A DNA stretch of 64,000 bases from Amoebophrya sp. A120 (taxonomy: Eukaryota > Protista > Dinoflagellata), in contig CAJINV010000012.1 in assembly GCA_905178155.1 (NCBI GenBank), forward strand, positions 1,182,492 to 1,246,491, in the 5' to 3' direction. Below, in pieces: positions 35,046 to 56,000 of this stretch; position 1 is the stretch's first letter; every line of letters starts with the position of its first letter. A program made the position numbers and the translations under genes. The notes beneath the pieces were generated by a model that saw nothing but the letters and a program-made list of their open reading frames with translations, did not search any database and had not been told where the DNA came from.

Positions 35046-38000
35046 TCACGCGTGATATCTTGACGTGCTTCCGCAGCGATACTGGTCTGTCGTCGTCCAC
35101 ACCCGATCCCGCTGTAGCGGAGGACGAAGCTGCTGCTGCTTATGCAATACCAAAATTATTTTGCCGGACACTAAGTACAAAACGCATCTAGACACTTCTG
35201 CAATTATCAGCAGCGCGTGTGTTTTCATGATGTTGCTGCATCAGGTTCCTGTGCCAAATCCATGTCACGCGGAGCCAGCATTTGCATTTTGTAGTGTCCG
35301 GTAAAATAACATTATCTGTGGATAGTGCCACGGCACTGTTGTCCTTGTCACCAACGGATGCTGAGGCACCAGCATGTTCTTGATCCGTACTACCAGGAAC
35401 GGCTCCGGTGTTGATACCCCTGGTCTTTTTCCTCTTGATAGTACCGCTGCCACTGCTGAACGCCGTTTCTGCAGCTTCGTGCCCCCCAGGAACTTTATTC
35501 TCCGCTTCCGGACAGTGGTTGCAGGTTTTGCGGCAGTGCTTCCGGACTTTTTCCAGGTCCGCAGAGCTGTACCCCGAGAGCTCCTTGTCCCGGCTCTCCA
35601 GTTGGCTCTTCTTGCCGCAGTCGTAGCTGCTCCACTGCGCGCAGTTGTAACCTTTTTTGTCGCGAAAAAACGCATCGTCTTCATCACAGCGGTAGTGCTT
35701 GCGCAGGTGCTTCCGCACTAAAAACTCTTTCTCACAAAACCCGCACTTTTGCTTGCAGTGCGAGTGGACTTCCGTTATTTCTGTCTGGTTATACTGGGGG
35801 GACGGATTTCTACACCAGGCTTCCGTCCACTCCTTGCACTTAAAACCTGATTGTTTCGATTGTAGGCCATGTTCTTGCGCATGACAAAAATACTTTCTGT
35901 TTCTTATATCTTCCACGCGAACGGTGGAACATGAACAACTATGCGTACTTATGCCAACACATAGATACTACATCTTCGCAGGTTTTAAGTGCAAGGAGAG
36001 TACTTCTTCTTCTTTTCAACTACTATCCGTCTTCCTCAGCGAATGCTGCGCACCGTCACCCCAGATGAAAAATGTGTTTTCGTTTTTTATTTTTCCCCGC
36101 ACGCATTTATTTCGTACTAGTAATAGTAAATGTACAACCACTACCAGCACATAAAGAAAATCTTCCTTGGGCGCTGCGCACCCGGAACGTCTACCTCCAT
36201 TAAAAGTTTATGCTGTCACAAAATACCAAACGCGCATTTTCGTTTTTCACAATTTCGAGAAAAATAATACAAAAAAGATTTTATATGCTGTTTATTATTT
36301 TCGAAAATCCTAGCTCGTATCAGGGGGCTCTGGAGCAGGTGGAGGAACGGCTGGCGCAGGCGACCTGGTAAGAAGTGTTTTTAGTGGTGGAGCGAGTGCT
36401 CATGACAGTAAATTCCTTAACTAGCTAGTGGTGCACGCGGCGGCGTTTCCACCCGGTGGTGAATGGTTACGGTCCGGACCAAAACCGTAACCTTTCGGGC
36501 GGTCGTCCCTGCAATCGGCGCCCGGACTTACACGGAGACGGACGCAAATACCCGGCACCAGCAGCACGAAATGGGTCACGGTTGGAGAGCGGAATCTTGG
36601 CGACGGGTACCTCCGCGATGAACTTGATGGCGAAGTCGGCTCCGACGGAAGCATACCGGGTGAAAATATCATAGCCATGTGGGGCCTTGCTATGGGACAT
36701 GACTGTTACCACTATCCACCGCCACCGAGGGCGACACGCCTTGCATGACAAAGTGAACCGCATGACCAAAATTAGCTGCACTTGACGGCCATAGACTGGA
36801 AGAAATGAAAGTTTTAAGGCCGCCGGAGATACAAACGCGTTTGTCTCACTGAGATCCGGAACCAACCTAGCTTCCAACTCCTGGCGCGCCTGCGTGCAGG
36901 CGGTAGTAACAGTCACGCCCACCCCTCTTAGGTTCCCCACATGGCTAAAGTATTTTCATCGTGGATACTGGACTAGTACTCGCGAGAAGGAGTTCGGCGG
37001 CCACGAAACAGGTCGCCACCCAGCCTTCCATCGCCGAGCGGAACCTGGGGCAATCGAGTGAGATCGCCCGCACGGCTGCCAGGCGGCCAACACCTAGCGC
37101 CAGGACGACTACGCGAGCAAAGGCAAAGCATTATTTTTCTATGGTGTCCAGGCCGCGCACAAGTCGACATGTCTGGCAGTGGCTGCTACGTGAAGGGACG
37201 GAGCCCGTCTCTCGGGCGAGCGAGTTTCAGCGTACTTCTCCGTAAACGAGCACGATCTCCACTGCCTCTCAACGCCCACAAAGGGAAAGACGACGACACC
37301 CAACCACGACGCGAAAAAACGACAGGCCGGAAGTGCGACCGTGGGCAACCTACGACGCTTGGGCAAGAGTCACCATTCAAATTACGCACCGACCTACGAC
37401 GCAGGTGCATCATCCTTGAATTGTCCGCAAAGCTTGTGGACCAGATGATTAGAATCCAAAGCGATTGAATTTTGTTTCTCTTGCATTGCTAGTTGCACTG
37501 CAGGGTTGGTCCATCAATCAGTTTTTGTATGTACCAGACAGGTGGAAAAAAGAAATTGACATAGCACGCAAACTACAATACAGTCAGATCGAGGTAGAGA
37601 CGGAGCAAAACCTAATAAAGCAGATGTGTAGAAAAGCCGAAGTTGCAGTCATGTTGCCAAGCAGAGTAAGAAAATAAAAACAAAGTAGAAAAGTGCGTCT
37701 GGATAGAAGTGAAGATGACAATAATACGAAGATCAAGATAAATAAGACAACAGAAACTCTTTATATCGGTCGCGCGTGCAGGTGGGGAAAAAACAATCGT
37801 CTTACGTGACCGAAAGAGCAGCAACAATACCACACGGTCAACGTCTCAGAGTAAACAGAAACAGAAGATGAAGACTCAGGAAATGACTGACCACTATGCC
37901 GTCTATCAAAGCCGCTGGGTTTCTCATCTCGCTCTCTCCGTCACGACACAGAAAGACTTCTCTTAGTTTTACCGAAGCGCTGTTCTCGATTCGACTTCTA

Positions 38001-41000
38001 GAAAAGACCACGACCTTCTACTTCTTGGTGGAGCTGGAAGACGAGGACGAGGAAGATTTGGAAGAAGACGAAGAACCCTCCGGCGCGGACTGACTGAAGG
38101 CCAACGTCTTGGAAACCATCTCCTGCTCACGCTGCATCTGCTTCTCGCGGGCGTCCTTCGACTTCTTGGTGATGCCCTTGACCTTCAAGGACTGGTCTTC
38201 CGGCTCGACGGCGAGGAGGAACTCCATGTCGAGGAAGCTCACGGTCTTCGGCACCACTTCGTCCGCAAATTTGACCTTTTTGGACTTCTTCGGCTGGTCC
38301 AGCAACGGGTCATTGAAGGTAGTGATCGGGTTCGGGCCGCAGGACTGTGTTGTTCGAAATTTACATGTTACATTTTGCACAACTACAACAAAAAAAAGCG
38401 AGATCGTCCCGAATCCATGAGCAACGTGATTTCTTGTCATTATCTCAATCGGACATCATGAATATCTTTATTTGCCATGCGCTTACCATGGCAAACGGGA
38501 CGAGGCAGAACTTGTTTTTCCACTTGTCCGGCCCAATGTTCGTGGTCTTGAATCGCAGGGCCAACGCACAACCGGTGTCCCTGTTGCAGGTGAGGGGGAG
38601 CAAGGCCGCGATTCCGAGGCAGCAGTTCTCGTACATGATCGTCTTGGTCTCATACAGGTTTCCGGGCCCGCTGAAGTCCACCGCGTAATGCCCGCGGTCG
38701 ATCGAGCAGTTCGCCGTGGGGACCGTCACCTGTTGTCGCAGTAGATTTTTGCATTATTTATACGAATGGGAACCAGGCAACATTACCCAGCGAAAAGATG
38801 GTGGGCCACACACGCACCACAGCTACCTCTCATCGCCAGCTATTCTCATGCAAATGCAACAAATTCTCACTACTGCAAAACACAACATCAATATGCGTCC
38901 TTCGTGAAATAATCGAAAGAAATATGCTGTCGATTACCGGCTTGTCGTCATCATCCCACGAGAGGATCTTGATCAAAGAGTGCGGCTCGGAGGACTGCTT
39001 CTTCGCGATCTCCGCCAAACGGTTGCACTCGCTTTCGTACAACAGCTTCGCGGCCTTAAACCGGGCGGCCTCCTCCTGCATGAGGCGCTGCATGTCGTTG
39101 TGGGACTCGAAGTTCATGTTGCCCAGGTTGTCATCGTCGTCCTCATCCGAAGAGACGGCAACCGCCGCAGCCAAATTATCTGCGAGATATTTCATTGCGG
39201 GTTTCGACGTTCAGATATGACCATGCGGGAAAATAGATGTGGGTCTGCAGTCATTGACGATGCGTTTTTACTGGGCGACAGAAATAGTACTCGAGAAAAC
39301 GACAAGAGTAATACTCTTCTTCTTTTTCGCGGCCTTTTCGGATTTCTCCCGTTCCTTGGCTTCTTTGCGGAGGCCCTTTTTGATCTGGGTCACCTTCGAC
39401 TCGTGCTGCTTCTTCGCCTGGTTCTCGGCCTCGCGGTACTTGGAGCGGAGGCTTTTCAGCCGCTCGTCGATCATGTTGGTGACCGTCGAGGGGGTGCTGA
39501 CCTTGTTGACCTCGCCCATTTCGAGTTCACCACCGTAATAGGCCTTGACGCGCATTTTTTCTTTTAACTTCGTCTTCTCAATCGTCGCGGGGGCAGGCAA
39601 GGTGACAACCTAGCGAGAGTTGTAAATTAAAACTTCATATCTGTGTGGGGTGTTAAGTCTCAAAACATGCACGCCAGTTTCATAATCGTATGTATCTGCC
39701 TGGGACAGGCTATAACAAAAACATCCCGAAACTAGAGGAGTAGTCTTTACCTCATAGGTTCCAGAGACGCACCCCGGGGTGTTCGCGACATACTTGTTGA
39801 TCAAGACCGACAGCTCCGAGCAAAACTTCTTGCTCCGCGCTTTCAACTCTTGTTCCTCCTTCGTACTCGGGTCCCAGTTATCGTACAAGAGCCCAAAATC
39901 ATCCGGGTGGACTTTCAGGTAGTGGTCCTGGGGGGTATGTTTTGTTGGTAGATTTGTCATGCGTGGCGGGTTGGACAAAAAAGAAAAAGCCCAATGCCCA
40001 GCATCAACATCTATATGGACTGAAAAGTAAAAAACCCACTTGATGTGCCTAACGACGGAGGAGTAGACGCATCCTACGAACAACTTTTGAAAAAATGCAA
40101 CTATACCGCCCCATGAATCATCTCGTGCTCCAACAAGAGCGAGTTCTGGTCGTTCTGCGCGGCACGCCTGTTCCGCATCAACTCACAGCAATCCCGCGCA
40201 AACTCTTCGGAATGGTCGGCGTGGAAAAAGAGACCGTCGTCACCAGCCTCCGGGTAGGTGTGCTTCGCGAACTCGAACACCTGCTGCAACTCCTCTTCAG
40301 AGAAGCCGTTCAAGCGCTTGCGGTACTGCTTGTGGAACTTCGCCATGATCATGGCCGACAAAACGCGGTCGAAATGGCCGCGGGACAGCTGCGTGGGATT
40401 CAGGCTCCGCACAGTAGTGTGGCACAAGGTGAAAATCTCCAGGTCGTCCTTTTTGACACAGGACTTCAACACCCTCAGGGCGCCACTGTTCGGCTCGAAA
40501 AACTTGTTCTCGGCAGTGTAGCACCCGGTCTTGTATTGCTGCTCAGTCAGCCCGTCCATGCGGCCGATCGCGTAGGCCACCTCGTCGGCAAAGGTCGGCA
40601 ACGGTTGACCCTGGGCGACGAGAGCCTCCTTCTTCTTCAGAAACTGCTTGCGCAGCTGATTGAAATAGAAATTGAAACTTTTTCGAATTCCGACTTCTAT
40701 GTTCTCCAAATGCCAATATATAGAGTGAGATCAACTTCAACAGGCTGAAACTTGGTCCAAAAATGCACCGGATCGAAATCGAAGACGGAAACTCACCTGA
40801 GCCGTGGGCGCTCAGAAGCTCACGCAAAATAAAAGGTAAGCATCCACCACTGCCGGTCCGACGGCATTCCGAATAAGCGCGCCCGGACCTGCCTACCCCT
40901 GCGCCAATGATAACCATGCTGCCCCCCCGCGCTGCCGGAAGGCCATTGCCCGCCCACCGCCGCGCGCATACTTGGTAGCGCTGGCGGGGCTGGCGGGGTG

Positions 41001-44000
41001 GGCCTACGTCCACCACAAACGAAGCGGATACGGGCAACCGCGGGGCCGGCGGATTTCCATCCACTCTCCCCGCCCTCAGGTTGCGATCTGTAGCGCTGAA
41101 ACTACCAAACACCATGCTAGTCCCCAACTAGCACGGTTTGTCGCTTTACCCTATTGATCTTGCAGCAACACCGGGCGGGGGTGGGCCCCAGGGCCACGCA
41201 AAGGGCCCCGCCCTTTGGAGGCAATGCGGGGCCCACCGGCAAAATGGCGCCGGAGACCCGCCAAACGCCCAGGACCGTGCCACGCTCGCCACCCAAAAAC
41301 GAAACGAGTTCCCCCATGTGTAATTTTTCGCAACAGGAAAAAGGACCACAATAGGACACATCAGACCACTTGACCTGCCTCGCTTTTTTAAAACATTTAG
41401 CCTGCCACCGGCCCTAATTTTTAAAATTTAATTTTTTTGAGCAAAAAGAATGGCGCCACCAAAGCAGAAACGAAAAAAACCACCCTGCGCACGGGCGAAA
41501 CAGGCGGCGAAAAGCAAAACAGCGCAGAAAATCCCCGCGCAGGCCGAACACGCCGAAAAATCCGGCGCCCTGACAATGAAAGACTGTGGGCGGTTTGGCG
41601 AACACCTGCGGGACTCGACAGGGCGAAAAAAGGCCGCCGGGCTCCGCGCCCAGTTTGCGTGGCTCCTTCAATGCCTGACCGGCCGACGGGGCGCAGATGT
41701 GCGCCAACTTTGCTGGGAAGATCTCAACCCCGAATGGACGCAAATCCAGGTAGGGGACTCGAAAACAGCACGGGGCGGCGGGCGCGGGCTGCTTGCGTGC
41801 TGCCCCATCGCCCCGGGCGCCGAGACGCTTATGACGCTCGCCAACTTCCGGAAGCACTGCGAGCGCGAGGCCCCCGACGGAAAACTTTCCGGCCCCATCT
41901 TTTCTTTCTCATACCATGCGTACGAAAAATTAATCCGCAAGGCCCGCCAGGGCTTCACGCCTTGCGACCCGGAGAGCTGCCGGCCGAGTGCAATCACGAG
42001 CCACACACCACGCCGGAGCTTCTGCACCCGCCTGATTCTCCAGGGCGTCGCCCCAACGGTGGTGCAGCAAATGTCAGGCCACAAATCCGCCACAAGCTTC
42101 CTGCGCTACGTGGCAACGGGCTTTGCATTTCGCCACCAAGCGGCCAAGCGCCTCGACCTGTAGATCGCGGTGGCGGCCGCGGACCAAAAAGCGGCGCGGC
42201 GCGGCCGAAGGCGGCGGGGCTGACCAGCGGGGGCCCGAGAAAACAAAAACCGCCGGCCGGCTTGCGCGGGTTGGCGTGGCAACATGGGGCCCACCAAAAC
42301 AGGCCGGCTAGCAGGCGGGGCGCCGTCGGGGCGGGTGCCCGCGCCCGGCGACCAAGACATGCCAGCTGCCATCTTGAATGGGCGCCCGGGCCCCGAAGAT
42401 TGCATGGCCACGCTCCATATGTGGGGCGTCGCACACGAGACGAAACCGAGCCAACGGTAGACCTAATGATAACACGCTTCGCGATCAGAATGATCCCTGT
42501 TAGTCGTTTTCACTACTGAACTGGACCGAATACTTGAAAGTGAAATTATGAAAAAAAATCTACGTACAGTGAGGCACTTTCCGGACAATTTCTGCCAGGG
42601 CGTGACCAAGAGATTCAGGTTTCCGTTGTTCTTGTAAAGCACGTACAACTGGAGAAGCTCGGGCCGAAATCTGGTCGGGTCCAAAACGAGGTGGCTCAGG
42701 ATACGGATCTGTAGGGTTTCATGGCGTTGTGGTGAGATGCTTCTCGTTGGAACGTGATGCGCGTGCTAGTTGGTTTCTCACCTTCACATGGGGCACAGAG
42801 CTTCCCCATCTCTGTCTTTTGCATGACCTACGAAAGAAAAATGCAAACTCGGTGGTGATTTGGTTTTGAAGATGAGAAAGACAAAAAGCACACAGTACAC
42901 AGATTCCCAGAGCAGCGACGGTCTCCCAGGCGAGGTTCTTCATGGCGATGGTGCTGTGGTGCCCAGCGGCCGGGCCTCGCGCGCGCAAATACGTGTCCAA
43001 GAATATGTACACCCAAACTGTAGGTGAGTTTCGGTTTTCAGATGTTGGGGGGGTGAAGAGAAATACATGAGAAGAATACGGGAGGTCTGCACGCACGAAA
43101 CTACTGTAGTGGATCTAAAAACAAAGGCGCGAACTATACTAATGCCGTCGCCGGCCATCCAGCCACCCGTTTCCACCAGGTTTTTCAAGACCCCGGGCTG
43201 GTCCGGGTCTCGCACCGGGTTGACATCGGCACCACAGTGCTTGACGTCGAGCGGCACGTAATTGTCGAGATCATCTTGTTGCACCTTCCGGGGTGCAACC
43301 ACCGTTGTGCCTTCCTCGACGAAGTCGATCACGGCCTGATTGGTCACAGCAACCGGGTCGACGGCGTGCCGCTGCAAAATGCGGTCTTGCGCCTCCAGCG
43401 ACGGAAAATCCGTGGCCGGGGTGGTTTGCAACACGATAGGGTTACGGGGGTCCGTCATTCTGTGATAAGCTTATCCGGGTACGGAAGCTTCGCGATTTGC
43501 TCGAAAGAGAAGTTGCTACTGCGTCAAAAGTGATTGGTTATTGGATAGGGACAGGGGAAAAAAACACTGCCACGAACAAGATCCAGAACACCACACACGC
43601 AAAAAGGGAAGACGAAACGGATGATCTTTTCTGGTTTCGAGCAGTAGCGTGGAGCTTTGGATTTTTCGATCAGAAGAATATGAGGAAAAATAAATGAAAA
43701 ATGCACAAGATTTTCACGAACCACGCCAAGAAAATGGAATTTTCATTTTTCCAACGAGGACTGCGAATTATCCAGATACTTTTCAAAAAAAAACGCTTAT
43801 ATTTTTCGATTCGAAAAATACGAACCGGCACGACGAAGACGGACATCTCTTTTTTTGCCGTATTCAGAGCCCGCGTGGCCCTCTCACGCTGGCGCCACAG
43901 CGGGTTCATTCGGAACGTTCGCATTTATGAACCGCTGCATTTCTTCTTGCGCGCGCCGCTCTTCGGCCTCCGCTGGGTCGCTGATTTCTTCGTCAAGAAA

Positions 44001-47000
44001 CTTTCCGACCTTCTTCAGCCAGGCCTTTCGGGCCTTGGAGATGTCTTTCATCTCCAAGGACGCAGCAACCTTTGTCACGCACTTCACCACGGCCTGGCTT
44101 CTCGCGGCTGCTGGCTGGTTGCTCGCTGCGACCCGGTTTTCATGGGCGGCGCGGGCAGCTTCACTGCGGTACTTCAGCGGAAGGTGTGCGCGCCAGGACC
44201 GATTGAACGGGCAGAAATTGCAGTAGAAATTGTACTCCCGGAGCCCGGTCTGCGCTAGTTCCGGAACCAGTTTCCGGACGTTGAAAGACCTGTCATATGG
44301 ACAAGAGTGCGTGATGATTAGGCACAACGTGCGCGCTGGGAAATTATCTCTTTTTGCAAGTTGCTTCCCAGCAGGCGGGGCTGGGGCAAAACAAACAACA
44401 CGGGGGCACTTCCAATAATTCGACTCGCCGAAAGCGCGTTTTGTAATGCTGCTTTCGACGATTTCGTAGGATTTTCGGGCAATCTTCCCGGATGCTCGCA
44501 CTTTAGGGCGAGAAACCGCAGCTGGGCTTGCAGTGGGCCCGAAGCCCGAACTTGTCATGCTGCCGAGCCCCCTCGGATAGGCGATTCAAAAGAATCGCCT
44601 GCACAAGGGGCCATCGCAGCATGCCGCGCTTGTTTCTCTAAACGACAAGCGACCTACAGACTTAGACAGATTTCGAGCATAGCACGCGGACCAGGCGAGG
44701 CGGATAGGGCAAACGCAGCAACTTTACTTCGTGTTGTGCGTTGTTAAGCCCAAAAAGAACTACTGACATAAAGCAAAAGCACGGCTTGTCATGCTGAGCG
44801 GCATTCTGCACCGGATTGCAATTGCCACACAGGAAAAAACTCGCCTTTTATGTATAGAGAACGAGTCAGATCATGAGCGTAGCATGCGGACCAGGCGAGA
44901 AGGATAGAACGACAGTAGCACTTTTAGGCTGTGGCGTCATGCATTGTTATTTTTATCCCCTGTTCTCATCGACGAATGACTTTCGCTGAAAAGTCAAAAT
45001 ATGGAAGTACCTCCAGGACGAGTCCGCCTTGCGCTCCCGCTCCGCCTGCTCCCGTGTCTCGGGGTCCGCCCCGGGATCGAACTCTGCCTCCTTTCTGGGT
45101 TCTCGCGCAGCAATAACATCGACCTGGTGGCGGGAAACTGCGCTCGACCCGAAGACTTATCCACCCCAAGAATGGGGCGACACACCCAACAGGCTGTCAC
45201 GCCCAAGGAGATCCTCCCAACACCTCAAGCGCGTGTTTGTCATGCGTACGGGCGTTCTTGCGAATTGCCGCTGCGGCGCGAGCTTGGTTTGTCATGCAAA
45301 AGTCGCCGCCTCCTTGATCATGATCTGTCATGCAAAGTCCGAACTTGGTTTGTCATGCAAAATTGGACCACCGCGCCAGCTAAGAGATAACCCTGCTGAT
45401 CTTAGAACTCCACCGTGTGGCGTGACAGCAATTGCGGTGATTTGCCCCACTCTCAATACATAGACCACCTAATACCCGCACCCGCAACTCCCGGTCGCAG
45501 GCATCCAGAGCGGGGCCGACACTGCTGCTTCCTTGCAGACCACCTGCAGTGGCGACGGCATGAACCTCCAGTAAGACGGAGGACGGCGTGACGCGTTCGA
45601 AGGAAATGTTCGTGACCTTCCGGTTGCTGCTGCACAGATAATCCTCCGCCCACCTCCCCAGACTTTTCCACTCCCCCGGCACCAGTTTGTAACATTCGTC
45701 TGATGCTGCCTTGACTCCTTGGTCTGGTTGCAGCAGGTCCGCGCGAGCGGGAGCAGAAGACGATGATGAGGATGATGATGAAGACCCGCCGTGACTATCA
45801 CCGGAGGGGCCGTTCCGCGCGGAGGAGCTGTTGTTCGAAGAATAAGCCGATGCGGGCATGCGGGTGCAGCGGTTGATCAATGCATTGCCCGGCTTGATGA
45901 AGAAGACCAGCCAGGCCTGCTGGTTTTTTTTGTCTGCTTCCGACCGCAGCAACATTCCCAGCCCCTGCGAGGCCGGGTTACCGTCATGGCCATGCCCAAG
46001 ATACTCGCTGATCTTTATGGCGCTCCCGAAAGGCTTAAAGTGGTGCGGAAGCAATTCAGCAGATGGAGGTGGGATCTCCAGGTCGTCGGCTAAGGTGACT
46101 GCCCTTTCCCACCGCTCGTCCACGAACCTCTCTGCCGCTTTTATATTCTCCTCCACAACCGTCGGGTCGAAGGCGTAGTCGAAAACTGCGTCCCGGAGTC
46201 CCTCATCTTCAGCATCCAGCCCGGCGTCGTTTTCACTGGTGTTTTCGGCAGCCACACGCATTTATCCAAGGAAAAAACACACCCAGCCCTATACAGCCAC
46301 CCAGAGTCAGTTTTTGTGGATATCCGCAATTTGTCATGCGTGGCGGAGATCGGCCTCTAAGGACGTTTTCCAGAATATGCAGGTCCTTATAGGCCGGCCT
46401 CTTTCACGCATGACAAATTGCGCAGTCGATCTCAATTCATTGGTGGGGCTCTTGCATTACATATCGGTCGCCACACTACAGCTCCTGCTCGTGACACAGG
46501 TACCAGAACAGGCCGGGCACAAACACAATTTGTATTGCATATGCCAGCAGAGACCCCTTCATCTATGGATATCGCTGTCGGGGCTCAACTTACTGTCAGG
46601 GCTCTCACAAAGGTCATGGCCACCACCATGGTCTTTGCTGCCTTTGTCCCTCTGCCAATCTGTCATGCAAAATAAGTCGTTGAGTGAACGCAGGAAGCCC
46701 AGGCGTGGCACCTTGCAAATCTGCGATGCAATCTGTCATGCTGATTTCCCAGGCGCTTTCGTGGCTGGGTGTGGCGGGGGGGCGGATCGCATACTGCCCG
46801 CTTTTTGGTTTTGTTGTGAGACAACCGCCCATCTGTTCGATGCTTCTGCTCGGCGCGGAGGCATTTGTACTCGTCGTACGGCAACCCACGGTCGAGCGCA
46901 ATCTTGGTCCTGTGAAGATGGTGTTTTGCGGGCGAGATGGTGTGTGGATGATCAATGGGACTAGTGCTTGCTCTACCGGCCGCCGAAAGGGAGCGGCACA

Positions 47001-50000
47001 CCAAAAAAGTTCTTGTCAGGAGAGGAGGGATGGGTGGAAACTGCTACTACTTACTTATTCGCCGGCGGGACCCGCAGGTCGAAACCCCACCGCCGGTGTA
47101 CTTTGATGAATGCATCCAGATGAAGTAAAAACTAACGATGCCACCGTGCGGCCGGGGGGACATGAAGTGAATACTTTTCCGCGACGTGTTCGGCAGTTGA
47201 CCGCCCACACCCTTCGCGCCGCTGGTGCATCAAGACAGAGTGCTGCGACTCGGCGCCCTGCGACGCCGGGTGGATTTGGCGAAGAAGGGAAACCAAAAAC
47301 GGCACTGCAAACCACCACCAAACCGGTCCCGGCTCCTTTCCGGCGGCGAGCAGCCGGAGCTCCTCGCGGTACGACTCCCTGAAGCTCAGCGACAAGTCGT
47401 CCAACTCCTGCTCCGCCCGGTCTATCCCGAGCAGCAGCTGTGCCATCTGGCGTGGGCGGAGGTCGGACCTCTGTACGCCTCCGGACGAGTCGACCTCGCC
47501 GAGCAAAAAAACCAACAGGTACGGAAAGCTCCGCAGCTGCAAAGTTCGGCCGCTGAAAATGGTCTTGCAGGCCAGAAGGAACAGCATGGTCGCGCGGCGA
47601 ATGGGGGCGTTTCGGATCAAGTCCTGATTTTGCTCCATCAACAACATCCACTCGGCGCCCGCAAGTGCTCGTGGCGCCATGCGAACGAGGTCCGTGGCCT
47701 TGACCGCACTAGACAGTGCCGCCCCGAACTTGCAAACCCGCGCACTCTGCCACTGAACAAAGGCCACAACAGGTGCAAGGGCCCGGGCCGCTATCCAGAA
47801 AAACTCCGAGGCAGTAGCCTTGATGCCACGGCCGCTGTGGGCGCCATCCTGTTCCGCCTTCCGCTCCGGGCTGGTTTTGTATGTGTTGAACATGGAGGAC
47901 ACGACGTCGCGATTGGCCTGCAGGTACTGCAAAAAAGGGTCCAAGCTCATCCACCTTGTTTTCACCCACTGCTGTGGAACCGGCTGCGGAAGCCGCGCAT
48001 GCTCCACGAACCATTTTCGTGTCCGGAGGCACATCTGGATGGAGGATAGGGCCGCGACGAATTCGCTGTACAATGCGGCGCCAAGCGTGATCAAAGACCC
48101 CGCCAGCAGGTCGTACTGATGGAGCTGGCACACGAGAATAACCATCAGGAACGGCAGGAGGCACTCCGCGTTGGCGCGGAACGGATGCTTGATCGAACTG
48201 GACGGCATCACCGCGGAGCTACTGGAGCTTGTAAAAGACGAGGACGCAGCCGGCGCACTCGCGTTGCCAGCGAGAAAAGCTCCCCCGCCCAGCTGGGCCG
48301 GGCTGTTCCAAAGTGTTGCGCCGCACGCCGCCGTCACCGCGCGGCAGAGTTGATAAAGACGGCTGCCGGCAAGAAGTACATCGCTGGCACTGTCGGTGAC
48401 CCAGATGATGACGCTCACATGGTAGCCGAGGCCGGCACAAGAACCAGGGAGGTGCAGATGCTTGAGCGCCCGGTAGACATCCTGGACCGCGTTCTCACTT
48501 CCACCGGACACCACGAAGGGCTTTGGAACAACCCGCCTGGAATATGACCGCGTGTTTTCCGCTCCCGAAGGTCCCCCGTTTGTTGTGGTGTACAGCAGAA
48601 CACACTCCACGTTCAGCAGCTTCTTGTAAGTGAAACAGGTCGCGTCCGGAGAAATGCGGGTGAAGATGCAGGCAACTGATTTTGTTTATGGCCAGGAGTT
48701 CATTTGTTACTTCTAATCGCCAAACCGACTAGCTGGGGCTGCAACGATAAAAAAGTCCTCCCACCCCTAGCTCGCCGCCAACAAGACCAGGCGCAACAAG
48801 CTCACTACTGTGTGTCATCATCACCATTGATTTATTTCGAGAGGGCAGACGCTCACGATGATACCGCAACGAATATTGACGGCTGGGAACTCGAAGACGA
48901 GATCCGGTGGCGCTACGGGGTTGGCCCGAGGAAAAACCGGCCGAGTTGCTGGTGGGAAAACCGACGACGAAGATGCCGATGACGATGAGGAAGGTGGCAG
49001 AGAAGCAACATTTCCGCCACGGTCCAGCGACGCTGCGAAGCCCCCCACGAGCGAGAGGAGTGATATCCCAACCAAAATCCCCACAAACATCGCACAGCAG
49101 CAGCTGCGCATAGTTACCCCTGCAGCTGCTGCTGCTCCACAAACAAGCCTCCTCAGGGTCTTCGCCCCGCCTGACAGTAAAAGCCTTCATGGCGCCCTGT
49201 CAGGAGGCGCTACGCATGACAAAAACAGAGTGCGTGGCCCGATCATGCCTGCTACCTCGAGCAGCTGCGGTGCCATGTTTGTGGGGATTTTTGGACAAGA
49301 TAGAATCCGTGATGAACTGCCGGTAGAAGGCGGAGGCCTCAAGCTCGTCCCGCAAAAGCAAAAGTCCCGCGACCTCTCGCTGTGCGCGAAGAATGAACAT
49401 CTTGGCCCGCGATTCGTTTTTCTGAGCATCCGCGCGCAGCAGTTTCGCCGCCTCCTCGTACTGGCTACTCGACAGGCTCTCATCCAAAACCGTCTGGCCG
49501 CGATGTCCGGTGATGGCGACAAACCTGTTTTTACCATGGGGAAACTGGGGCGCAGGACCGGTAGCTCGGTCATCCTGCCGAGCAGTTTGACAAAGGTGGT
49601 GGCAGCACTGTTTTCAGGATCACGAGCACAAACGCGAATGTCTTATCATCATCATCTTCATGTACCCGCCCTCACCCATCGCAGCTGCTGCTTTCACCTC
49701 AGCCTCGAAATCATCCGCGCCGGCCCCGTCGCCGCGGGCACTATTTGACACGGGGCGGACGTTCCTCTTTTTCCGCGAGTTCTGGCCGGTGAGAAACGTT
49801 TCCAGCAACCTTGCCCGCGTCATCGAACTGCCTGCTTGCGTTGCGACAGCCCACTGAAGGTATACCGCCCCGTCAGCTTTGAGCGTGTCCATCATCTCCT
49901 GGACCTCCTGAACGAGGGCGTCGCGGTCGTAGGCCCAATGCTTCTTCCGCTGCCTTGGCGGCGGGGGAGCCTCGTTGCCTGGTAGGAGGGGGGAGTCCTG

Positions 50001-53000
50001 ATCTTGCTGCCCATTCTCGAACCACGCGTCGCCGCGCGGGCTTACTTCAAGGAGCTCGGCTTCTGCTGGAGCAGCTGGTTGCTCCGGAGGAGCCGGAGGT
50101 TGTGCGACCAGTTCGCTGACGGTGTCGTACCGGTGGAGGATGAATTTTTTTACCGACTGCTGGATGCGGGTGAAATGTAGCTTCGTGGACCCCCATTCCT
50201 CGTTCAGCACCTTTCGGAACTGTGACACAGACACAGTTGCTTTGTTCCGCCGCTTTTTCAGCGCATCGCCGTGTTGCTCAGCGAAGTTGTTCAAGAAAAA
50301 AACGGCTTCTGCTGGTGTCGTTAGTGTTGCGCGTTGCAGCTCGTCGTCCAGGCTGCTTTGATCGAGCGCAGACATGGCCAGAAGCCTCTCCCTCAATGGG
50401 GCTACGCTCCGGGCACCAAACTACGGCAAGCCGGCATCTCGGGAGGTTGAAGTTATTGGAGACGACTCCACGGACATACTTGAACTTGTTGTGCGAAGAT
50501 GCAGCTGCAATTGGCGACAGTGAAAGCATCTGCGCCAAGGGCCTGAGCGGGAGACGGTCAAGACAGTGGCTAACCGAAATAAAAAACCACGGCCGCCAAA
50601 AACCGGCACTGTTAGGAGATCTGTGCAAAGACCCCTCGCAAGATCGCATCGTGATCGATTGGAACCTTGTGAAGCCCGGAAAAGAACATCGACTCCGAAC
50701 TGATCAGAGATTGCACAAGCAGCTCGCTGACATGAGCCACCGCACGCCACCTACTATTCTTTCAACACTGAGCGGCAGAGGGGATTCGGGCTGCCGATCA
50801 ACATTAACTCCATGCTCGCACGCAGTTGCTCACATTCGCTCCGCAATCCCAATCCAGACCCCGTGTGCGCGTCACGGACGTGCGTATGCGGTCGGCCGTT
50901 CGGGTTCGCTCACCCGTTTGGAAGTTCGCCTATCCCATGCGAAACCCGCGTCATCCCCTGCACGACCGCCCGAAAGGTTACGGTTTTGGTCCGGACCGTA
51001 ACCATTCACCACCGGGTGGAAACGCCGCCGCGTGCACCACTAGCTAGTTAGCATTCCATTCAGTTAACTACATGATGTCCATAGCAAAAACCTTACCATT
51101 CAGGTGCTCGGTAGGAGTGTTCTGGCGGCCGGGCGAAGAGGGGCAGGGCGGCGACTCGAGAATGCGGCTTGCGAATGCAATTTTGAAAAATGTTTTTTTC
51201 ATTTTTGAACGAAAAAATCGAAAAACGAAAATGCGCGTTTGGTATTTTGTGACAGCATATAAAAGTTGGCAACCAATTATACGAATACCCTGCGAATCCT
51301 TGAACACGGGGTCGTCGGCGCAAACCGTCGTCTCGTGCTGTTTCAGCATCGCAGCTTCGGCGACGTCCTCGTCTTTGATGGGCACGGGCGCTGCTTTCCC
51401 ACCGCCACTCGAGGAAGCCGCCTCCGAGGTGGCCGGTGGCGGGGCGGGGCTGCTGTGTTCTTCCACTAACTTCCCCACAAACGCCTTCTCGGCGCCCAAC
51501 GCGTGTTCCACTTGCGCCAATGCGGCCTTCTCCGTAGCCTCTACCTTCTGGACGACCGCCGCGATGTTGCTGGAAAGATCGCTTTTCTTCGGGTCGACAG
51601 GACTGTTCGGCGCCGAGGCCGGCTCGCTTTCGGAAGCGGCAGCGGTCGCCCCAGGAGTAGTTGCGGGCTCCAGCGCTGCAGTAGCATCAATCACTGGTGG
51701 CGCCGCAGAAGTTCTTACAACAGCGGCACTACTAGCGCTTGTTGTTTCTTCGGCTGTTTGTGCAGCCGCGGCCGCCGGCGCAGCGGCTGCTTGTTCCACC
51801 TCGGCAGATTTCGCTAGTCCAACAACCGGCACAGGAGCTGGTGCTGCTTCTTGCGCTAGTACAACGACCGGCGCGGAAGTCGTGGCTACAGCTTCGGCGG
51901 AGGAAGATGTTGGTCCAGCTGCTACAGTGGCTGCTCCCGCTGCTTCCACAGCGGGTGCTTCCGCAGCGGGTGCTTCCGCGGCCCGAGTAGCGCTGGAAGT
52001 GACTGCCGGCGCTCCGGCTTGTTCGCCTGGTTGGAGTTCCTGAGAAACTGCAGAAGATGAACTACCTTCTGTTATAACGGGAAGAACATGAGGACTTCGA
52101 CCCGCCCCGGCTGCGGCCTCTTGCTCCGCCGTCGTGACAGCCGGTGCTGGTGGCGCGGCCGTCACGACGGCTGCTACTGCTTCTGCTGCACCTGGACTCG
52201 TCGCGTCCGCTGCCGGCGCAGGAGCTGTTGTAGTAGCAGTAGCAGTTTCAGGTGCAGCAGCAGCCGCGGACGTCGTCACAACTTCGGTTTTATTTTCCTC
52301 GGTAGGTGGTGATGTTGCAGCACCAGGTGCTTCCTTTTGGTCCTCGGTCGTTTTCGCGACGGGTTGCTGCTCCTCCGACACCAACAGGCCAGTGTCTTCC
52401 GATGTGGTTGGCTTCGTAGTACTTGCCGGCGTTTCCGTCTCCAGTGTCGAATCTTCACCAACTGCCTTCCGCGACACTAGTTATGCCTTGCAAATATGTC
52501 TGGGTCTGGAAACTTGTCATGCAACAAAGGGAATACTAGTGAGCACACTGTAATGCGCTGCCAAGCATGACAAGATTTTCCGTGGTTCTGAGTTGCGTAC
52601 TTCGCATGAGAAACTGCGTTTTTGAAACACAGTTTTGAGGAGCTGTGCGCGACCACGCAATACAGAGTTTAGAGTCATGCCAGACTAGCATGACAAATCT
52701 CGCCCATCTCCCAGACCCAGACATATTTGCAGTTGATACTAGCGGTAGCTCCGCGAAGGAAGACACGGCGCCGGCGGTGGTGTCTGGTGCCCTTGCACGA
52801 TCTGTGGCGGCGTTCGGTGCCCCGGGTTTTGCGTTTTGTACGTGTTGCTGCGTTATGCTGTGCAAAAGTATCGTACTCGTAGTAATTGCAATCATGCATT
52901 ACTTTTTCTTAAGGTAAATCAGCAATACAAATTTCGTTTCATCCCATCCTGAGGAAATTTGTAATGCATTTATACGAGTACGATGCTTTTGCATTGCATA

Positions 53001-56000
53001 TGCGTCGCTGGGAAAGCTGGAGATGTGGCTCCTTGCGGCGACCATTGTTCCGGCGTTGTGACGCCGACCGCTGTAGGAGGGGTACTTCTAGTACTTCCGG
53101 GCTGCAAAAGCACCTTGCCAGACCTCTCGTTCTTCGCAACGTCACCCTCTTGTTTCGTATTCGTATCTAGTTCTGACAGTAGTTGTGGTGCACCGTCGCC
53201 AGGTTGTGCAAGAACATGAGTCCTACCTGTTTCATCCTGGTGTCCAGCCGCTGGAGACGGCGCGGGGTTTTGTGAAGATAGCCCTTCTTGTGCAGCACCA
53301 CTGGCGGCGGCGGGGTCCACTAAAGCTCCTGCACTCAAAGGCCCGCTTCCAGACATCGTTTTCTGCTGCAAGTCTGCAGCTGTTCCCGAATGGTCTCCCA
53401 CGCTCGACACATCTGCATCTGTACTCTTCGTAGCACTCACCCGTTTCGCGGATATCAGCGGCCCGAGCGCTGTATCAAATGCAAATATGTTGTCTGGGTC
53501 TGGAATGGTAGTTGAACCTGTTGTATTGCGTGTTTCGCATATCTAAAAAATCTGTATTGCACAAGCAGCAAATAAAGTGCCACACTTTCGCTATGCAAAA
53601 GTGCAGTCTGTAATGCCCTCTGCGCATGGGATTTGTCATGCTACACTGCACTTAAAGGCGCAGTCAATCATGACCATTCAGCATTACAAGTTTCCAGACC
53701 CAGACATAAGTATTTGCATTTGATACGCTGCCGCGACGTGTGTCTGCACCGCGGTTCTCCCTGCCACCCCGATTGGCTGCGCGATCTCTTTATCCTGTGC
53801 AAAAGTATCGTACTCGTACTAATCGCTTTTATGCATGACAAATTTTTTTCCTGAGTGAAATCCGCATTACAAATTTCATTTGTAATGCTAAGTCAATTTG
53901 CGTTGCAATTTATACTAGTACGATGCTTTTGCAGTTCATACTCTTGCATCAAAGGCAAATGTGTCAACATCTGGGGCGGGAAAAGAAGTGGAATTTCTAC
54001 CTGCTTTTTTGCCGCGTGCCGTATTGAATTTCTGTAGTAGAATCTGTTACAGTACTACATGACCAAGAACAGCGAATACGCACTACGATGTCCAATTCGG
54101 CTATTAAGTCCACTGGCCGTCTCATGCCTGGCTGCATTTGTCTAGAAATTGCCTCATCTGACTCACCAGGACCAGCCACAGCGACAGCGCAGCACCACAA
54201 GTATTCCCACGCAGAGGACCTCCCAGACATCTTCACATTTTCGATGCATATCGTGACCGGTGGACTGCTATGCACTGCAAATTAGTATGCCTCGGTCTGG
54301 AAGAGTCGGGGGCTGTCATGCACATTTTGCATCACCCGTGAGGTCTGTGATGCTGGTGCTAGCATGAGAGACTTTTCGAGGGCTTCTTGATGCTAGTTAC
54401 GCATGAGAAATGCCCTCGCCGCGTGCCAAGAACTGACTCCTCTTGCTGCTCATGCAACACAGATATTTTTAGAATCCAAAAACAGCATGACAAGTTGGAT
54501 CCTTCCAGACCCAGACGTACTTGCATTTGGTAACTGCAACGTTGCTTCGTGGGCGTGCTCGTAGTGGTGCTTGTCCCGCTTTTCGTGGTGGTTTTTCCGC
54601 GGGAGGGACGGATCGCCCCCGTGGGCCGTGTGCTTCAGCGGAAAGCTGACCGAAACGCCCACCGGTCGATCAGGTAGGTGCCCGTATCAACTGTAAAAAT
54701 GTCTGGGTCTGGAAGAATTCATGTTTGTCATGCTTGTCTGGCATGACTCTTAAATCTGTCATGCCCGTTACCCAAGAGCTGCGCTTTTGTGTGATGCAGA
54801 AGCGCAGTTTGTCATGCAGAGTAGGCAACACCTAGGAGCTCAGAAAGTTGTCATGCTGAGCCAGCATTTGTAGCCTCATCATGAGACGCTGCCCAGCATC
54901 ACAAGTTCCCAGACCCAGACATTTTTACATTTCCTAGCCCGTCCGCGGAAACGAAAAATACCGACTGGAAAAAATGGCTTTGGAGCCAAAGGAGCACAGA
55001 CACGAATAAAAGAACCGGGGGCGAACTGCCCGCAGCTAGAGGTGGCCTCATTTTTCTCTCTCTCTTTGGACAGACACAGATCAGACGACGACGCTGCGTC
55101 ATTTACAGCTCGGCGTCGTGGTGTTGACCTTGACCAGGGCAGTTTGCATTTTCTTGAAGCAGTTCCTTGTCGCAAGAAACGAACCAAGTAGTAAGAAAGA
55201 GTAGCTTAAAAAGGGCGGCATGATAGATAAACAAGAACGTGACAACTACATCACTCCTCCTCTCGACGGCGAAGTACTTGGACAAAAAGCGTTGCTTCGA
55301 ACACAAGTCCAGTAAACTTGAAACGCCAGGCTGCACTGCGCAGGTACGAGGACCTTCGGCACAGTGCTATCTTCGCCGCACTGCATTGGAATTTCACCCT
55401 CGCTCGGGGGGACCACGAAAGAAACGCTTTCTTGTGTTGAAGTATCTCTTGCAAGAGATGAGGTCGTGATGGGTTCTTCGGGTTTGTTGATAAGATAAGG
55501 TGTCGGCCTTTCTTTCAACCCGGTCTTCTGTGGGTTGGGTGGGGAGTTGGGTTTGGGGCTACCTATGCTTCGGTCTACTTCCAGGGGTGATCATGTTTGG
55601 GGCTACCTACTTATGTTCCTGTACCGCTTTTGTCAAAATAAATCGAAACTGCTGGGTTGGTAGTGTTGGGTTGGTGCTGGTGCTAGGTTAGTTTTGCTAG
55701 GTTGGTGATGCTAGGTTGGTGGTGCTAGGTTGGTGATGCTAGGTTGATTGGTGGTGCTAGGTTGGTGGTGCTAGGTTGGTGATGATAGGTTCATGAAACT
55801 GAGTTAATGATGCTGGGTTGGTGGTGCTCGTGGTTTTATTAAAGGTTTAAAACATCAAAAGGCCTCAATATCGCAATGCAAAGAATTGGCGCCAGGACCT
55901 TTTCGTCAGCCGTGGCTATTCGAAAGAAAATCATCTTGGCGCGTATTTACGTTGCAAAGCAAAGAGCGAGCAAAATGAAAGAAAGGTGAAGAAACTCGAA

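Follow-up and report, generated by a model that had tools for sequence, protein, structure and literature searches.

We analysed a 64,000-nt stretch of the genome of Amoebophrya sp. A120 (the window; all coordinates are positions within it), in which an intron of a host gene contains a 15,051-bp segment that starts and ends with perfect terminal inverted repeats (TIRs) of 40 bp and encloses a second pair of perfect inverted repeats, of 89 bp. The interior coding space consists of three genes, two of them spliced: a gene for a likely hAT-like transposase, a cargo gene and a gene for a tyrosine recombinase (YR). Our preferred reading, to which we give a probability of about 0.45, is that the segment is one cut-and-paste hAT-like element with double ends, and that the YR is a later passenger. 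An element of a divergent Amoebophrya hAT-like lineage would have entered a host intron of 383 nt in one piece, giving rise to an 8-bp target duplication. The outer ends would be the substrate of the long transposase, interrupted by introns, that the element itself encodes, and each of these two ends would include an inner repeat as its second conserved part. The element is removed with the host intron by splicing and carries one expressed cargo gene, and a YR cassette with its own end repeats would have landed later in a cargo intron, where splicing hides it.

Nested perfect repeats at the ends of the element

The outer TIRs (36209-36248 and 51220-51259) are 100% complementary over 40 bp, and the likeness continues to about 75 bp at 84%. 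Directly outside them, the 8-bp sequence TAAAAGTT is present as a direct repeat at 36201-36208 and 51260-51267; a clear target duplication was found at these outer ends only. Duplications of 8 bp are the signature of hAT elements (PMC3942097; here and below, statements on published work follow the available parts of the papers cited). The inner repeats (36418-36506 and 50962-51050), each of 89 nt and 100% complementary, are unrelated in sequence to the outer pair. They start with a palindrome, which makes the boundary between the end of a TIR and the start of a target duplication unreadable. Both perfect repeat pairs and the outer duplication had been described in an initial annotation of this DNA, and they were confirmed. 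Spacers of 169 nt separate the pairs on each side (36249-36417 and 51051-51219), and the midpoints of the two pairs coincide at 43734. With the inner repeats taken as its ends, the element measures 14.6 kb.

To assess the assembly, we compared the window with contigs from two DNA runs (X1 and X2) and from three RNA-like runs of one sample (X3, X4 and X5), whose RNA nature is recorded as a guess and which contain GT-AG joints. X1 and X2 are possibly the source of the window and thus test the assembly, rather than serving as independent samples; contigs in general show presence only, and rare variants are dropped from them. A 14,515-nt X1 contig reproduces 36477-50991 with zero differences at a depth of 43 (43-46 in the host flanks), and in X2 the inner repeat forms one 89-nt contig with a depth of 38, compared with 20-27 for its neighbours. 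Together, these values indicate an interior with no close second copy and an inner repeat present about two times. An assembly error, or host genes that lie between repeats by chance, might be suspected where contigs break at both repeat pairs and no single record spans the locus, yet the stretch is covered from end to end by overlapping contigs, with 0-2 differences per DNA contig, and among the RNA-like contigs some read through the left ends without change and others join the host sequence on either side of the insert by splicing. This explanation is thus largely refuted and, in our view, highly improbable: the structure is not an assembly artefact. Which way round the interior lies is beyond the reach of short reads.

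The outer ends also occur elsewhere. An X4 contig with loose ends at 51202 and 51259 matches the window between these positions, exits at the last TIR base into a different flank and diverges inward. This second outer end thus terminates at an identical base although its flank is different, which marks the outer ends as those of a mobile family. Extra X2 depth near the right outer end likewise points to outer-end relatives and may include a host paralogue. Beyond the TIR of the X4 copy lies CGAAACTT, which has AAA and the final TT in common with the duplication here; this hints, from two sites only, at a target preference.

The presence of outer ends elsewhere and the two-copy depth of the inner repeat would also fit three stacked insertions, namely a non-autonomous element of 420-432 bp that made the 8-bp duplication, then an autonomous 14.6-kb hAT-like element on its central palindrome, and then the YR cassette. 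Every gene lies inside the inner pair, the reconstructed empty inner site, TAACTAGCTAGTTA, is a perfect 14-bp palindrome that could hide a duplication of 2-10 bp, and a comparable nesting has been described in ToxhAT (PMC6737239). Such a history, however, requires the second element to have hit the precise middle of the first, for which the chance in a random insertion is about 1 in 340 positions or 1 in 17 TA sites (a coincidence noticed post hoc). Close to the centre, the two arms of the small element show no significant likeness (172 of 2000 shuffles), and the inner pair lacks a non-palindromic flanking duplication. No empty-site joint, outer or inner, was seen in the X2-X5 contigs, from which rare variants are dropped. 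We favour the single double-ended element and consider two stacked TIR elements possible but unlikely.

A candidate derivation of the spacers as the decayed part of a once-perfect 298-bp TIR was unsupported, with the spacers at chance level beyond 35 nt. Within the spacers, at 36367-36417 and 51051-51097, GTAAG...CTTAC motifs on either side of the inner element can be read, in both strand directions, as a splice donor and acceptor. They look like a small bidirectional intron that encloses it; no RNA joints using them were seen.

A divergent hAT-like transposase gene

The transposase core exon (47175-48682, minus strand) contains PDAT, TDSASD, CQLH, TRW and ESQHS at 48649, 48397, 48130, 47959 and 47254, corresponding to D, D, CxxH, W and E, whose catalytic roles are suggested by their positions. 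Searching 1.8 billion representatives with the open reading frame (ORF) of this exon recovered 6 proteins at E <=0.001, and all of their clusters came from Amoebophrya sp. AT5.2. The full-length relatives are 1,269-1,869 aa long with a long C-terminal extension, and PDAT, TD, CxxH, (T)RW and E-x-x-H-S are common to most rows of their alignment. Further exons on the minus strand (46258-45464, 45153-45011 and 44289-43884) are open over 447 codons, with two joints in X3, and the C-terminal profile of the AT5.2 relatives matches the exon at 44289-43884 (E 1.3e-11). Given this match, the splicing and the open frame, we assign these 3' exons to the same gene as the core; the profile match rules out a separate gene. 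We infer that the link from 47175 to 46258 and the putative 5' exons (48700-50375, minus strand), which have open frames and an inverted-repeat intron at 49074-49291, also belong to it. The 5' exons showed no homology to the profiles of the AT5.2 relatives, and the N-terminal and middle profiles of these relatives identified no exon in the window. The core exon and the YR ORF are covered by no RNA-like contig in X3-X5, contigs not being evidence of silence. Of two raw RNA runs, X9 placed 1 read on the stretch and X10 placed 0. The initial annotation had listed a transposase, a cargo gene and other ORFs; the first two stand, and most of the others are exons of these genes.

The motifs, the predicted fold and the 8-bp duplication agree that the enzyme is likely a very divergent hAT-like transposase, as the initial annotation had proposed. 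Nine of the ten best Atlas matches with a family belong to the hAT family or clan, at scores of 0.86-0.88, which is the level of a lead. When the predicted structure, a poor model with a mean predicted local distance difference test (pLDDT) score of 50.8 (single-sequence fold, 40), was compared with 48,161 chains, Hermes ranked best, with a Z of 9.4, a root-mean-square deviation of 4.4 and 161 aligned residues, followed by a chain at 6.7. Hermes was the only chain with Z >=8, model residues 188-384 aligning to its residues 265-430; in helical proteins, Z values of this size can be generic. It is the agreement of the Atlas and fold matches with the 8-bp duplication that leads us to the hAT-like reading. 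Foldseek returned nothing at E 0.001 and placed Hermes at rank 23. No Pfam hAT domain (Dimer_Tnp_hAT, BED finger) matched the core ORF or the six relatives. A profile search of PDB sequences with the transposase yielded 0 hits, and a word-index search with the core gave no match among 7,993 candidates.

Inverted-repeat insertions are found inside the element at 36650-36969, 45154-45463, 46325-46422 and 49074-49291, and the one at 45154-45463 is spliced with non-canonical ends. The 721-nt transposase intron contains a 72-nt direct repeat (44655-44726 and 44855-44926), whose copies are 72% alike and 200 nt apart.

The cargo gene and the tyrosine recombinase in its intron

The cargo gene (38018-43455, minus strand) has nine exons with 802 open codons, and all of its introns are GT-AG. 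Six introns were seen as joints and one as a loose end in RNA-like contigs, and one is predicted. The exon ORFs scanned had no Pfam or NCBIfam match, and the exon at 40107-40655 had no homologue among 1,009 longer proteins. Motifs in the first exons (42899-43455) may resemble those of an Ulp1-type cysteine protease. Some Cryptons carry an Ulp1-type protease gene (PMC3212892).

One cargo intron (40656-42567, minus strand, GT-AG), spliced in one X5 contig, is 1,912 nt long with 60% GC, compared with 135-208 nt and 37-47% GC in the six other measured introns. It contains the YR gene (41450-42163, plus strand), which is intronless, lies antisense to the cargo gene and encodes 237 aa comprising the catalytic domain only, with R, K, HxxR, H and Y in place; the ORF matches Pfam PF00589 (E 3.1e-10). 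Both the spliced cargo gene and the antisense YR in its intron had been proposed in the initial annotation and are now documented. Three relatives of the YR are 59-60% and 40-42% identical to it, and those that are named all come from Amoebophrya sp. AT5.2. By features, the nearest of the Atlas neighbours listed are short prokaryotic and viral YRs, and the YR alignment identified 0 loci in metagenome and viral contigs.

The YR is surrounded by repeats of its own. Three copies of GGGGCCCACC (at 41180 on the minus strand, and at 41228 and 42286 on the plus strand) delimit a cassette at 41180-42295. They are all of the exact matches in the 64 kb, where 0.06 would be expected, for a motif chosen after sight; two of them form a 10-bp direct repeat around the YR ORF. 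An imperfect inverted repeat of ~24 nt at the cassette ends was matched in 1 of 500 shuffles. The two YR genes found in AT5.2, g2071 and g1514, have gene numbers well away from those of the six transposase genes found there (g6567 to g17901). Since the intron is about 10 times longer and GC-richer than the others, the YR is intronless and antisense with its own repeats, and the AT5.2 YR genes are not numbered beside the transposase genes, we take the YR to be a probable late arrival that came as a ~1.1-kb cassette and would have landed in the cargo intron.

A working role for the YR has to be weighed against this. Each inner repeat contains a 13-10-13 inverted site, at 36461-36496 on the left (12 of 13 arm positions matched, asymmetric spacer) and at 50972-51007 on the right, in inverted orientation relative to the left. 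Sites as good occurred in 5 of 5000 shuffles and in 10 of 1421 window tiles, and the inner-repeat pattern was found 0 times in metagenome contigs. Conceivably, the transposase moves the whole element by its outer ends while the YR recombines these sites, inverting the 14.4-kb interior or resolving an intermediate; YR action would also keep the inner repeats identical. The YR is intact, and the sites, with arms of 13 bp and a spacer that is asymmetric, face opposite ways in the left and right repeats, which is the geometry of inversion. YR sites have been described as 11-13-bp arms around 6-8 bp (PMC3212892), and Tec and Sardine pair DDE and YR genes within complex TIRs (PMC3464196, PMC3212892). 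The spacer here, however, is 10 bp rather than 6-8, short inner repeats are frequent in TIRs, the YR has separate flanking repeats, and the AT5.2 gene numbers place no YR beside a transposase. An X4 contig ends exactly at the inner repeat edge (36506), which is where contigs of the two orientations would part; this sign is weak and ambiguous, being equally explained by reads that start inside the right repeat, and an X3 contig from the same sample crosses the junction unbranched (35623-37063). We consider such a two-enzyme element improbable, more so than stacked insertions. Its strongest form, a hAT-like transposon with its own recombinase and two loxP/FRT-like sites in inverted repeats, in which the YR flips the 14.4-kb interior and the transposase comes from a lineage that profile searches miss and whose relatives could move Amoebophrya introners, seems to us slightly less probable still. 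The data do not demonstrate the two recombination chemistries in one element that the initial annotation suggested: the interior occurs once, repeats of its own flank the YR, and the AT5.2 YR and transposase genes found are not numbered next to each other.

The single double-ended element with a passenger YR also has evidence to answer. No second interior copy in the data shows the ends, inner repeats and genes travelling together, and beyond their first 35 nt the spacers lack significant likeness (560 of 2000 shuffles scored as high). The palindromic empty inner site permits a hidden palindromic 8-bp duplication, and with it a separate inner hAT element. The fold model of the transposase is poor and its Atlas scores are below 0.9. 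The 13-10-13 site looks like a recombinase target and fits a working YR; a clear direct-repeat boundary of the whole GC-rich YR block was not found (268 of 500 shuffles as good); and the lists of AT5.2 genes, besides coming from a different strain, sample it incompletely.

Splicing of the host gene across the element

The host intron is spliced from 51288 to 35652 on the minus strand (15,637 nt, GT...AG; 383 nt without the element). The joint connects 51289 to 35651 in one contig each of X3, X4 and X5, the shorter side measuring 27 nt, and was mapped at 35649/51287 (cut +2, CT..AC). The initial annotation had placed the element in a GT-AG intron with bounds 35847-51288; the intronic position holds, and the left bound moves to 35652. 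The 195-nt segment that is skipped in consequence (35652-35846, minus strand) is in frame and comprises one 65-codon Cys-rich repeat unit. Position 35847 is likely an older host acceptor that would retain this unit; no X3-X5 joint uses it. At 35975-35998 (plus strand), the host exon junction recurs as an inverted 24-nt copy, which can pair over 20 nt with 35830-35849, and the resulting stem over the 35847 acceptor has a fold z of -4.9 (0 of 200 shuffles as good). The acceptor is likely skipped because this stem would hide it. The copy itself reproduces the exon-exon junction in inverted form, one G short of an in-frame join, 130 nt inside the intron. The host tolerates a 15-kb, three-gene element in an intron whose splicing continues, and pays for it by skipping one repeat unit.

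The unspliced X3 contig 35623-37063 enters the host exon from inside the element. Together with a second unspliced RNA-like contig (37038-38236), it covers the path that begins at the stop of the cargo gene, crosses the left ends and reaches the host exon. These contigs may represent pre-mRNA or cargo read-through into the host 3' exons.

With regard to age, the perfect repeats, the intact YR and the open, spliced transposase exons would fit a young or still competent insertion. The single copy, the lack of an empty site in the contigs and the introner-type introns in the transposase gene (49074-49291 and 45154-45463) argue that the lineage is old and that the present copy is not spreading. 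The recent activity suggested by the initial annotation had the perfect repeats as its sole basis; these stand, and neither an empty site nor a close second copy was seen in the contigs.

Comparison with known elements

The element resembles hAT transposons such as Hermes, Ac, Buster and Tip in its TIRs, its 8-bp duplication and a DDE enzyme with CxxH, W and a helical insertion. Published hAT elements span 2.5-5 kb with TIRs of 10-25 bp (PMC3942097), whereas this one spans 15,051 bp, has repeats of 40-89 bp and includes two repeat pairs, a cargo gene and a YR; its AT5.2 transposase relatives, with their 1,269-1,869 aa and long C-terminal extension, have no Pfam hAT match. The evidence supports an element that would work like a hAT; motifs, fold and duplication back its membership, while profile matches and size do not.

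DDE and YR genes lie within one TIR pair here, as they do in Tec1/Tec2 (Euplotes), Sardine/Thon (Paramecium) and MarCry-1_FO (Fusarium) (PMC3464196, PMC3212892). All of these are Tc1/mariner elements, with a TA duplication in MarCry and Tec excision between TA dinucleotides, in contrast to a hAT-like element with 8 bp; they are multi-copy with a proven pairing, and here there is one copy, with the YR in the intron of another gene. Among Cryptons, a DDE gene is reported only in MarCry, according to a 2026 paper (PMC13465315). The YR cassette would resemble Cryptons in having a lone YR gene without long TIRs and with short repeats at its putative ends, nested in another element as Cryptons often are. 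Unlike them, its YR is a 237-aa protein consisting of the catalytic domain only, the nearest look-alikes among the Atlas neighbours listed are short prokaryotic or viral YRs, the putative end repeat is 10 bp rather than 4-6 bp, and a domain scan of the YR detected no GCR1_C or other Crypton domain.

Starships have a DUF3435 YR captain as their first gene and lack TIRs, whereas here the YR is internal and matches PF00589 only, and the ends are TIRs with an 8-bp duplication. Polinton-like viruses carry capsid, packaging ATPase and polymerase or helicase genes, and none of these was detected among the 23 ORFs scanned.

ToxhAT, a fungal hAT-like cargo element of ~14 kb with a nested transposon, is similar in its size and transposase and also has cargo genes and inverted repeats in its interior (PMC6737239). 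In ToxhAT these inner repeats are part of the small transposon nested in it, whereas nearly the whole element is enclosed here, and the available description mentions neither a YR nor an intronic position. Two conserved TIR pairs in one element have a precedent in MULEs (PMC3310237), where they are mostly tandem duplicates of one TIR, in plants, unlike the two unrelated pairs here.

The initial annotation had proposed a possibly undescribed large cargo element. The pairing of DDE and YR genes is known from the Tc1/mariner examples above. No description of a hAT plus YR element or of this Amoebophrya transposase family was found in the literature searched, in full text; it may be listed in subscription papers (e.g. 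Roy et al. 2023) or in supplementary data, for instance Dataset S2 of PMC12130899, and PMC6431247, as far as available, gives bacterial examples only. If the two-enzyme reading were true, this would be the first hAT plus YR element found in the literature searched, and a YR that acted on the inner repeats would carry the combination of DDE and YR enzymes beyond Tc1/mariner.

Relation to Amoebophrya introners

Introners with short inverted repeats have been described for Amoebophrya (PMC7789003), and between 15045 and 63643 the window contains dozens of 100-400-bp introners with TAT...ATA inverted repeats. At some of them, the summed contig depth reaches thousands of times the single-copy level. 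They share with the outer TIR the TAT...ATA termini and are likewise spliced from host genes, and differ in being 100-400 bp long and non-coding, with a 3-5-bp duplication. An exact 5-bp duplication flanks 21 of the 37 TAT...ATA elements of the window, and an 8-bp one flanks 0. The outer TIR scores low on the introner end profile, with 92 of 631 TATS sites scoring as high. Membership of the outer element in the 5-bp introner family, considered as a candidate, was ruled out by the 8-bp duplication and this low score.

Farhat et al. (2021) reported that one Amoebophrya strain had two putative transposases while the other had none, and on these grounds excluded a general transposase-driven spread of introners (PMC7789003); A120 introners have since been attributed to diverse TIR transposons (PMC12130899). 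A transcribed, spliced gene for a putative hAT-like transposase in a bounded element, together with six AT5.2 relatives that are invisible to Pfam, now offers a concrete enzyme family for the question of introner mobility. The firmest value of the locus is this profile-invisible, hAT-like transposase family in a genus where transposases had been reported as nearly absent (PMC7789003). Outside the element, at 55647-55848, the window also contains a tandem array of about 10 copies of a 14-nt unit.

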